Virus genome (UHGV): UHGV-0109493
DNA: 30,683 bases
Direction: 5' to 3' (one strand)
DNA from: a virus
Part shown: piece by piece, positions 5,451 to 7,142 of the stretch
Layout of the letters: each line of letters opens with the position of its first letter
Position numbering within the stretch: position 1 is the stretch's first letter
Made by a program: the position numbers and the translations under genes
The notes under the pieces: model-generated
Database searches by the model: none
Seen by the model: the letters and a program-made list of their open reading frames with translations, nothing else
What the model was told of the DNA's origin: nothing

Positions 5451-5581
5451 GTTGACCTCATTTTCCCTTAACGCTGGGGGAATTGGCTTCATAGTTGCTC
5501 CGTATCGTGGAGCCTACGACCTGCTTTTAACCACATCAGGTGAGGTGATATCCTTACAAATGGTAATTTGCTGTAAGGATA

Positions 5582-5860
5582 TTAATTATGGATATTAAAT
5601 TTCGCTGTCCTCATTGCCGATCTCGCTACATTGAGATCGACGAGCACTCTGGCTCTGACAATGATCGTTTTATCTGCGGTGATTGTTTTGCGGAAATCAA
5701 AGATTCTGATTTCAGTGAACACTTTAATAAAACAATCAATAAAATCATCCGGACAGTTAAAAACCGCAGGAACAAGTAGTTTGTATAACTTCTCAATCTG
5801 ATGTCTCAGGGGGCTGGTATCTATTTTTAACACCAGTCCCTGCTTTTCATCTGCGATCAT
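5582..5860 (-). CDS. Hypothetical protein, candidate first gene of the leftward early operon
   Basis: 92-aa ORF MIADEKQGLVLKIDTSPLRHQIEKLYKLL with GGGGA upstream of the ATG. Orientation fits leftward early transcription from beside the repressor gene, but it overlaps a plus-strand ORF almost completely. Confidence 0.4.
   Translation of the reverse strand: MIADEKQGLVLKIDTSPLRHQIEKLYKLLVPAVFNCPDDFIDCFIKVFTEIRIFDFRKTITADKTIIVRARVLVDLNVARSAMRTAKFNIHN
5588..5779 (+). CDS. Hypothetical zinc-ribbon protein antisense to the 5582..5860 ORF
   Basis: 63-aa ORF MDIKFRCPHCRSRYIEIDEHSGSDNDRFICGDCFAEIKD with two CxxC pairs about 20 residues apart. AAGGA lies 7 nt upstream of the ATG. Only one of the two overlapping ORFs is likely real. 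Confidence 0.35.
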   Translation: MDIKFRCPHCRSRYIEIDEHSGSDNDRFICGDCFAEIKDSDFSEHFNKTINKIIRTVKNRRNK

Positions 5861-5960
5861 CTTCGTATCCCCTTAACGCCGGGTGGCGGAACTGTTTGCT
5901 GAGAACACCGTGCGGTGTTTTGGTGTGGTTAATTTAGAATAACCTAACAAGACAGGCAAG

Positions 5961-5992
5961 CACTTTTTGTTAGATCAACCTAACAAAAAGTG
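5961..5992. terminator. Perfect 13-bp inverted repeat, candidate bidirectional terminator or operator
   Basis: cactttttgttag atcaac ctaacaaaaagtg sits about 30 bp downstream of the minus-strand repressor gene and between convergent transcription units. It contains a TTAG-N6-CTAA core. Confidence 0.45.
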
Positions 5993-6021
5993 TGTTGGGA
6001 TATAACAGACTGAAAAGAAAG

Positions 6022-6429
6022 CTATTTTATAGATTTGTTTTTACGAGCTTTGAGCATTTCTTCGAAAAGTCTATTGAAATTCTCAACTCTAGCGCGCATT
6101 TCAGACAGCAATGCTTCCTGCTCGGAGGATGGTAGAGCATCGAATAATTCAATCAATTCTTTGTGGCTGGGAGTTAGCTCGTTTTCCACATGAAGCTCTT
6201 GTGCTGGCAATGGTGTTTTGTCTTCGTCACCAAACATTAGCCACGTAGGTGAGCACTTCAGAGCATCCGCTAAAGCAAACAGTCGCTTCCCTACAGGTTG
6301 GGTTTCATCTCTTTCCCATTGAGAAATGGTGACGTGAGCAACCCCAGCGAGACGTGCGACTTCTCGTTGTGTCAGGCGTAATTCTTTTCGTCTTGCCAGA
6401 GCTCGCTGGCCTAGTGTTTTTGTATCCAT
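6022..6429 (-). CDS. dicA: DicA-like HTH (XRE-family) prophage repressor
   Basis: 135-aa product with helix-turn-helix LTQREVARLAGVAHVTISQWERDETQP and C-terminal MRARVENFNRLFEEMLKAR, closely resembling recalled Qin DicA. Divergent from a Cro-like gene. Confidence 0.85.
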   Translation of the reverse strand: MDTKTLGQRALARRKELRLTQREVARLAGVAHVTISQWERDETQPVGKRLFALADALKCSPTWLMFGDEDKTPLPAQELHVENELTPSHKELIELFDALPSSEQEALLSEMRARVENFNRLFEEMLKARKNKSIK

Positions 6430-6508
6430 AGTTAGGTAATTCTAATTTTTCTTGACTTAGGTATCCCGCGCACATTAGTGTTAGGAATATCTAACAAAGG
6501 GGGCTTTG
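6430..6508. promoter_or_regulatory. Divergent promoter and operator region of the immunity switch
   Basis: 79-bp AT-rich gap between divergent dicA-like and dicC-like genes. Holds two TTAG-N6-CTAA sites (6432-6445, 6481-6494) and a TTGACT -35-like hexamer at 6452-6457. Confidence 0.5.
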
Positions 6509-6736
6509 ATGTTTAAAGTTGATGCAATTATTTTTTTTGGTAGCAAGACAAAGCTTGCCAGTGCCGCAGGAGTAAGGCTGGCAAGTATTGCTGCATGGGG
6601 GGAGCTGGTCCCAGAAGGTCGCGCGATGCGTCTGCAAGAGGCATCTGGCGGAGAGCTTCAGTACGATCCCAAGGTTTATGACGAATATCGTAAGGCAAAG
6701 CGGGCGGGTAAGGGTATTCATGAAAATCAGGCATGA
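6509..6736 (+). CDS. dicC: DicC-like Cro-type regulator
   Basis: 75-aa product MFKVDAIIFFGSKTKLASAAGVRLASIAAWGELVPEGRAMRLQEASGGELQYDPKVYDEY resembling recalled DicC. AAAGGGGG precedes the ATG at 6509. Confidence 0.8.
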   Translation: MFKVDAIIFFGSKTKLASAAGVRLASIAAWGELVPEGRAMRLQEASGGELQYDPKVYDEYRKAKRAGKGIHENQA

Positions 6737-7142
6737 GCACATTGAATCAGTGTTGTTAGCTCTGGCTGCCGAAAAAGGTCAGGCGTGGGTTGCCAACGCA
6801 ATTACTGAAGAATATTTGCGCCAGGGGGAGAGTGAATTAGCCCTGGCGCCAGGCAAGGACTGGAACAATCAGCAAAACATCTATCACCGCTGGTTAAAAG
6901 GTGAAACAAAGGCGCAAAGGGAAAAAATCCAGAAGTTGATTCCTGCAATCCTGGCAATTCTTCCGCGCGAACTGCGACACCGCCTCAGCGTTTTTGACAC
7001 CCTGGAACGTCGCGCATTACTGGCGGCTCAGGAAGCGCTGAATACGGCAATTGATGCGCATGATGATGCAGTCCAGGCCGTTTACCGGAAAGCGCATTTC
7101 AGCCGCGGCGGATCATCCGGCGATTCTGTCGTAGTGCATTGA
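6720..7142 (+). CDS. ydaT: YdaT-like protein (Rac-type, toxin-like in reports)
   Basis: 140-aa product MKIRHEHIESVLLALAAEKGQAWVANAITEEYLRQGE matches recalled Rac YdaT. Its ATG at 6720 overlaps the end of the dicC-like gene. Confidence 0.8.
   Translation: MKIRHEHIESVLLALAAEKGQAWVANAITEEYLRQGESELALAPGKDWNNQQNIYHRWLKGETKAQREKIQKLIPAILAILPRELRHRLSVFDTLERRALLAAQEALNTAIDAHDDAVQAVYRKAHFSRGGSSGDSVVVH

Follow-up and report, generated by a model that had tools for sequence, protein, structure and literature searches.

Background

The Qin prophage of Escherichia coli K-12 carries an immunity switch formed by the repressor DicA and its Cro-like partner DicC. DicA represses the promoters dicBp and dicC, and dicBp has been treated as a PL analogue with predicted operators (PMC10448788). 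The Qin operator Oc (5'-TTGTTAGTCATAACTAACAA) gives DicA-dependent repression in vivo when cloned before a reporter, and a single A-to-C change in its CTAAC arm abolishes this repression; Oc overlaps the -10 of the dicC promoter, the start of which was mapped by rapid amplification of 5' cDNA ends (5'RACE) (PMC3441716). Chromatin immunoprecipitation sequencing (ChIP-seq) of DicC in Qin gave its strongest peaks on each side of dicA, one per side, with the palindrome TT(A/C/T)G...C(G/A/T)AA, and DicC represses dicA 48-84-fold (PMC11430063). Repression of dicBp by DicA is relieved by Rem (PMC10448788). Here we describe four palindromes of the form TTAG-N6-CTAA around a DicA-like repressor gene in virus genome UHGV-0109493, analyzed over its whole stretch of 30,683 nucleotides (the window). 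They are very probably the operators of a Qin-type (DicA/DicC) immunity switch in a Rac-like prophage, as judged from sequence.

The window is a Rac-like lambdoid E. coli prophage with 99.9% identity to the chromosome of strain 442/2. GenBank record MN652886 ("Escherichia phage Rac", strain 442/2) labels dicA, dicC, and ydaT and leaves the operators unannotated; a literature search on this record found no paper. Among other phages, P22 has the operator consensus ATTTAAGATATCTTAAAT, with half-sites TTAAG 4 bp apart (PMC5175364).

Probable operator sites around the repressor gene

Exactly four matches to TTAG-N6-CTAA occur in the window (0.29 expected), and none of 100 whole-window shuffles reached four. 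All four lie within 561 bp and flank the repressor gene. The operator region is AT-rich (GC content 0.38-0.44), and a preliminary description of the locus had named abundance of the motif throughout the AT-rich DNA of the genome as a finding that would speak against operators. Such abundance is not seen: dinucleotide shuffles of the local AT-rich intergenic DNA alone gave 0.003-0.016 expected sites (P < 1e-4), and the motif was present in none of 25 other low-GC 500-bp windows in the stretch. The four-site cluster is far above chance, and the local shuffles and background counts rule out a chance product of AT-rich DNA.

The preliminary description placed three of the sites correctly (TTAGGTAATTCTAA at 6432-6445, TTAGGAATATCTAA at 6481-6494, and TTAGATCAACCTAA at 5970-5983), and the 13-bp-arm inverted repeat it reported around the last of these is perfect (arms 5961-5973 and 5980-5992). 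All three sites are real, but the list was incomplete, as a fourth exact site, TTAGAATAACCTAA at 5934-5947, had been overlooked. The direct repeat AACCTAACAA lies where it was reported, at 5941-5950 and 5977-5986, with no other copy in the window, but it is no separate feature: each copy is made up of the right arm of one left site and the bases next to it. Two sites, 5968-5985 and 6479-6496, match the longer form TGTTAG-N6-CTAACA perfectly; the site at 6432-6445 does not have their TG/CA flanks. In the frame of the P22 c2 operator, the operator can be tentatively defined as an 18-bp sequence, TGTTAGR-N4-YCTAACA.

The repressor encoded between the two pairs of sites (Table 1) is 57% identical to K-12 Qin DicA over 132 of its 135 amino acids (aa). 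Residues 1-72 match the N-terminal domain of P22 c2 (E=1.4e-18); the match stops at residue 72, and the V..SQWER recognition helix of P22 c2 is kept. Across 16 members of the DicA family, 46 columns are invariant, including H32, V33, and S36-R40. The protein has the features of a full-length DicA-family repressor, namely a length of about 135 aa, an N-terminal HTH_3 domain, and a conserved C-terminal helical part. Pfam searches with it returned helix-turn-helix (HTH) families only and no S24 peptidase or cleavage domain, and published remarks on DicA likewise describe no cleavage domain. The divergent gene encodes a protein 75% identical to K-12 Qin DicC, which is a probable second reader of the same sites; in Pfam, YdaS_toxin was below cutoff for this Cro-like protein. 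An operator set for the DicA-like repressor, as first proposed, is supported by the Qin Oc motif, by the Qin layout, and by selection on the arms in relatives, and remains a prediction at this locus.

Conservation in related prophages

Two sets of relatives were compared. The close set comprised 80 IMG/VR loci with repressors 93-100% identical to the one described here. The distant set was obtained by profile search with one genome per species and gave 57 loci, of which the 28 with a full-length repressor were counted. Each of the 80 close loci has exactly four sites, at -65 and -16 from the repressor ATG and at +38 and +73 to +75 after the stop codon. All 320 of these sites are inside two operator zones, and the remaining 242 kb contain none. 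Among the unique close sequences, 0 of 32 arm positions vary, compared to 10 of 24 in the centres and 78 of 187 elsewhere in the intergenic DNA. Judged from these alignments, the arms are under purifying selection. The ATG-proximal site (-16) is invariant in both arms and centre in the 80 relatives; the -65 and +38 sites have invariant arms and a variable centre.

In the 28 distant loci, 50 of 51 sites are inside the operator zones. The proximal left site is at +72 to +77 in Citrobacter, Buttiauxella, and Qin-type loci. E. albertii, E. ruysiae, Citrobacter, and Buttiauxella have the same layout, including CAT-AG-TTAG, TTGACT, and CTTGCC-17-TAAATT/TAATCT, and a looser version is found in Enterobacter, Pantoea, Erwinia, Rosenbergiella, Rahnella, and Yersinia.

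Recognition helices and half-sites were also compared. Loci with helix HVTISQWE, the form found here, have half-site TTAGR (198 purines and 6 pyrimidines at the fifth base), and loci with the Qin-type helix HVSVSQWE have TTAGY (0 purines and 22 pyrimidines). The fifth half-site base appears to covary with the recognition helix, which is suggestive rather than firm because few lineages are represented.

One branch of relatives has a 139-aa repressor (loci L110, L111, L115, and L116; Enterobacter, Buttiauxella, and others) and no exact TTAG-N6-CTAA sites. In these loci, TGTTAGGTTT half-sites (e.g., TTGTTAGGTTTAAATAACAA) surround a TTGACG -35, and the repressor gene is followed by a canonical terminator; the branch is a variant operator form.

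Table 1. Predicted operators, promoter elements, and genes of the immunity region and its neighbourhood (positions in the window).
Feature	Position	Strand	Basis
Proximal left operator (OL1-like), ATTTAGAATAACCTAACA	5932..5949, core 5934-5947	.	Exact match; kept in relatives
Distal left operator (OL2-like), TGTTAGATCAACCTAACA	5968..5985, core 5970-5983	.	Exact match, inside 13-bp-arm palindrome 5961-5992
Repressor-proximal right operator (Qin Oa/lambda OR3 analogue), AGTTAGGTAATTCTAATT	6430..6447, core 6432-6445	.	Exact match
Possible degenerate middle site (Om-like), TTAGGTATCCCGCG	6457..6470	.	Left arm alone matches (TTAG 6457-6460)
Main right operator (Qin Oc/lambda OR1 analogue), TGTTAGGAATATCTAACA	6479..6496, core 6481-6494	.	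Exact match; position and sequence homology to Qin Oc
PL-like leftward early promoter	5931..5959: -35 TTGCCT 5959..5954, 17-bp spacer, -10 TAAATT 5936..5931	-	Hand reading
Candidate repressor -10 TAGAAT, spelled by centre and right arm of ATG-proximal site	6444..6439	-	Hand reading
PR-like promoter for dicC-like, ydaT, and replication genes	-35 TTGACT 6452-6457; weak -10 ~6474-6481 (ATTAGT/TAGTGT)	+	Hand reading, homology
DicA-like repressor gene, 135 aa	6022..6429	-	Pfam HTH_3 4e-15, N-terminal P22 c2-type HTH
DicC-like (P22 Cro-type) regulator gene, divergent from repressor	6509..6736	+	Pfam P22_Cro 3e-12, 46.5 bits (cutoff 30.2)
YdaT-like (CII-type) regulator gene	6720..7142	+	Pfam YdaT_toxin 1.8e-11; phrog_163 CII-like activator 3.8e-36
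Rem-like open reading frame (ORF), 86 aa	11959..12219	+	tblastn with Qin Rem: 59% identity over 82 aa, E=6e-28
RefSeq-annotated 92-aa ORF	5582-5860	-	No family hits
63-aa CxxC...CxxC zinc-ribbon ORF	5588-5779	+	Weak Lar-like and phrog_5602 hits, own AAGGA ribosome-binding site

Comparison with known immunity switches

The K-12 sequence, read directly, has CAT-AG-TTAGCTAATGCTAA abutting the dicA start, then TTGACT (the -35 of the dicC promoter), and then Oc. Downstream of dicA it has TTGACC-17-TAATCT; the spacer contains TTAGCCATGACTAA, and about 35 bp farther upstream is a second site, which is degenerate. The alignment with the Qin operator region called for in the preliminary description gave a match in both motif and site layout, at dicA/dicC and at dicBp. 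The two systems share identical arms (TGTTAG/CTAACA), a homologous repressor (57%), and a homologous Cro-like partner (75%). They also share one site over the rightward -10, one abutting the repressor ATG (CAT-AG-TTAG), one in the leftward promoter spacer, and a second about 35-36 bp upstream of it, together with a Rem-like gene and a non-cleavable repressor.

The switches differ in several respects. The fifth half-site base is a pyrimidine in Qin and a purine here, and there are two changes in the recognition helix (HVTI here, HVSV in Qin); therefore, the module in the window and Qin are probably heteroimmune. In the window, the distal left site forms a perfect palindrome with extended arms, whereas the Qin site is degenerate (TATG...CTAA). 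The present module sits in a Rac backbone (recET, kilR, sieB, and ydaF) with YdaT downstream, where Qin has ydfX/ydfW, and its leftward operon leads to kilR/recET instead of dicF/dicB.

Phage P22 c2 has a homologous N-terminal DNA-binding domain (E=1.4e-18) and the shared V..SQWER helix. The operators have the same 18-bp frame and 5-4-5 geometry, with TTAGR-N4-YCTAA here and TTAAG-N4-CTTAA in P22. The half-site sequence is different, and the repressor described here, at 135 aa, is smaller than P22 c2 (216 aa); its C-terminal part is short and helical, and a RecA-cleavable domain is absent. There are two full sites per operator here and three in P22.

The lambda CI/Cro switch likewise has divergent repressor and cro-like genes, operators over PR-, PRM-, and PL-like promoters flanking the repressor gene, and a CII-like gene after cro; bistable logic is likely in both. 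However, the operators are unrelated in sequence, with two full sites and a half-site on the right and two sites on the left here, only about 0.5 kb separates the left operator from the right one, and the repressor is not SOS-cleavable. The locus does not have the features of an SOS-inducible switch of the lambda/P22 type, as it has no S24 peptidase domain and does not have three full sites per operator.

The PaaR2/YdaS/YdaT system of CP-933P and the RacR/YdaS/YdaT system of Rac in K-12 have the same gene order, with YdaT as a CII analogue. CP-933P also has a leaderless repressor gene and operators common to the repressor and the Cro-like protein. Both systems belong to other repressor families with other operator motifs (the CP-933P half-site consensus is GTTTAGTAA), and the Cro-like protein here is of the DicC/P22-Cro type, not of the YdaS type.

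Promoters and proposed switch

On the right-hand side, positions 6478-6497 read GTGTTAGGAATATCTAACAA, an Oc-type TTGTTAG-N6-CTAACAA sequence downstream of the conserved TTGACT. The spacing from the Oc-like site to the ATG-proximal site is 49 bp, compared to 50 bp in Qin. The TTGACT -35 is conserved family-wide, and the position of the PR-like promoter is homologous to that of the Qin dicC promoter; its weak -10 abuts the Oc-like operator, and a GGGGG Shine-Dalgarno precedes the dicC-like ATG at 6509. A half-site at 6457-6470 has its centre midway between the two full right sites (25/24 bp) and overlaps the rightward -35. In relatives, those in Citrobacter and Buttiauxella among them, the segment TTGACTTAGGTATCCCGCGCA hardly varies, and the half-site may be a degenerate middle operator site.

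The core of the ATG-proximal site is 2 bp from the repressor ATG, with no Shine-Dalgarno between them, and the CAT-AG-TTAG..AATTCTAA junction is kept across genera. We infer that TAGAAT within this site is the -10 of a nearly leaderless repressor mRNA; the candidate promoter has a poor -35 (GGGATA). The arrangement at the repressor start is reminiscent of lambda PRM and of leaderless paaR2 in CP-933P.

On the left-hand side, matching sites are found at the leftward promoter equivalent to dicBp (5934-5947 and 5970-5983). The proximal site (5932-5949) takes up the spacer and extends into the -10, and the distal site (5968-5985) lies upstream, separated from the -35 by 8 bp. Relatives and Qin dicBp (TTGACC-17-TAATCT) keep CTTGCC and TAAATT/TAATCT with this spacing. 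This PL-like promoter would drive the region of the ORF at 5860..5582, ydaF, kilR, and recET. Control of a leftward early promoter in the manner of lambda OL had been suggested for a single site; the suggestion is supported, but there are two left sites, and the overlooked one at 5934-5947 covers the promoter core. A search for a third left site with up to three mismatches found one poor match (5815-5832), which was rejected.

In the proposed switch, a dimer of the 135-aa DicA-like repressor would bind each site through its P22 c2-type HTH. Binding at 6479-6496 would cover the rightward -10 region and turn off the dicC-like gene, ydaT, and the replication genes. Binding at 5932-5949, over the spacer and -10, and at 5968-5985, immediately before the -35, would silence the leftward promoter and thereby ydaF, kilR, and recET. 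The site at 6430-6447, at the repressor start codon and with the likely repressor -10, would be autoregulatory and Cro-sensitive, and would let the DicC-like protein switch off the repressor gene.

Since the repressor has no cleavage domain, induction would proceed through an antirepressor or by bistable switching, as reported for Qin. The window contains a Rem-like gene, which adjoins hokD, as in Qin, and is a candidate antirepressor for the non-cleavable DicA-like repressor. No LexA box was found near or upstream of the Rem-like ORF.

A joint scheme can also be drawn. Here the operator pairs, about 0.5 kb apart, would be bridged by repressor oligomers into a small loop around the repressor gene. 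The distal left palindrome would double as an RNA hairpin or protein roadblock against read-through into the toxic kilR/recET operon, and, separately, the fifth half-site base (R vs. Y) would set immunity specificity relative to Qin DicA in cells with both prophages. Taken as a whole, this scheme is unlikely.

The analysis pins down the predicted control sites that would keep the toxic early genes of a Rac-like prophage (kilR, recET, and replication) silent, in a Rac variant with a Qin-type DicA/DicC switch instead of RacR/YdaS. Family-wide comparison sharpens the operator definition given above, lends support from outside K-12 to the unfootprinted left operators of Qin dicBp, and offers a testable candidate base separating two immunity specificities (this type and Qin). 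The mechanism is already known, and the understanding of lambdoid switches is unchanged; the family-wide footprint, the refined 18-bp operator, and the candidate specificity base are modest additions.

Alternative explanations

Several points weigh against reading the four palindromes as operators of a DicA/DicC-type switch. Their operator role is a prediction, known here from sequence, and the helix/half-site covariation depends on few independent lineages. Binding by DicA-like and DicC-like proteins is inseparable in the comparative data because both genes always co-occur. A consensus promoter scan of 5700-6700 called none of the three promoters at its thresholds (the leftward promoter scores 8/12), and they were therefore assigned by hand, by homology with Qin, and by conservation. 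Neither Om nor Oa of Qin bound DicA in vivo when cloned singly (PMC3441716), so the site at 6432-6445 may not be a DicA site by itself. In a study from 2020, the DicA site at dicB is listed as being of unknown location (PMC7567609); therefore, even in Qin the left operators are predicted, not footprinted.

The strongest alternative is that some or all of the sites are read mainly by the DicC homologue, and that 6432-6445 is a DicC-type shut-off site rather than a DicA site. The Qin DicC ChIP-seq peaks flank dicA with a matching palindrome and accompany the 48-84-fold repression of dicA (PMC11430063), the Qin sites Oa and Om alone are unbound by DicA in vivo (PMC3441716), and 6432-6445 differs from the two perfect sites in its missing TG/CA flanks. 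However, Qin Oc, which has the same core, binds DicA (PMC3441716), and the half-site appears to change together with the P22 c2-like helix of the repressor. We regard this alternative as possible but somewhat unlikely. Proteins of lambdoid switches share operators, and it would therefore refine rather than replace the explanation by a DicA/DicC-type switch. By analogy, the ATG-proximal site may be mainly a Cro-type (DicC-like) or cooperative site.

A second alternative concerns the palindrome at 5961-5992, which could be chiefly an RNA hairpin that ends repressor transcription and insulates the leftward operon, with TTAG/CTAA incidental. Its perfect 13-bp stem begins 30 nt after the repressor stop codon, the 101-nt segment that holds it folds better than shuffles (z = -3.2), and the scan shows no other terminator separating the repressor gene from the leftward promoter. 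In some distant relatives (L088-90 and L110-116) this place after the repressor gene is occupied by a canonical terminator, and the operator is not extended. However, the hairpin does not have the G+C-rich stem and U-tract of an intrinsic terminator: the stem is A/U-rich, with 3 G-C pairs in 13 bp, and is followed by CUUGCCUG. The terminator scan of 5700-6700 called none at 5961-5992. In close relatives the stem outside the operator arms is 5-16 bp, and it goes down to 5-10 bp in some while the TTAG/CTAA arms and their position are fixed; TGTTAG...CTAACA is present at the distal left site in nearly all relatives. Because stem length varies and the operator arms do not, selection appears to act on the operator core, not the helix. 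With no U-tract and a variable stem, a terminator is unlikely, and the hairpin explanation as a whole is quite improbable; a secondary role of 5961-5992 as a read-through barrier is about equally so. We read 5961-5992 as a putative operator with extended symmetry.

It is extremely improbable that the sites are either chance matches in AT-rich prophage DNA or boxes for the CII-like YdaT encoded next door, as the shuffles and the 25 low-GC windows described above argue against chance, only one site occurs in the roughly 310 kb of 108 related loci that lie beyond the operator zones, the footprinted YdaT motif (A/T)TGATT-N6-AATCAA differs (PMC11879457) with no good match at the four sites, and a search for YdaT boxes (TTGATT-N6-AATCAA) showed no enrichment and nothing at the four TTAG-N6-CTAA sites.

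Gene context

In strain 442/2, the neighbourhood of the immunity region contains xisR, ralR, recT, recE, kilR, sieB, and ydaF to the left and ydaT, ydaV, and hokD to the right. It is a Rac backbone with a Qin-type immunity module replacing RacR/YdaS. In MN652886.1 516-1149 (window 6509-7142), the GenBank notes name the DicC-like gene "cII" and YdaT "cro", and family searches indicate the reverse.

At 6713-6730, GGTATTCATGAAAATCAG overlaps the ydaT start codon. It is degenerate (4 mismatches) relative to the footprinted Rac YdaT box ATGATTCATGAAAATCAA, which has the same position (PMC11879457).

The leader of the PL-like transcript contains a perfect 14-bp palindrome, ACACCGCACGGTGT, at 5905-5918, which forms a weak RNA hairpin. 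Across 37 unique related sequences the palindrome does not change, whereas its flanks do, and it is also present in the Qin dicBp leader. A second copy, as in a nutL/nutR-like pair, was sought in the window, and ACACCGCACGGTGT proved to be single-copy. A protein site and a 5' stabilizing stem are candidates for its role.

A module of about 390 bp (5480-5870) is missing in Qin and most relatives, where the leader continues straight into the ydaF/ydfA-like gene. The module is bounded by repeated CCCTTAACGCYGGG (5466-5480 and 5870-5884) and holds two overlapping ORFs on opposite strands (Table 1). The plus-strand zinc-ribbon ORF, which may be the real gene of the two, also has a terminator-like hairpin at 5807-5842, followed by TTTT.

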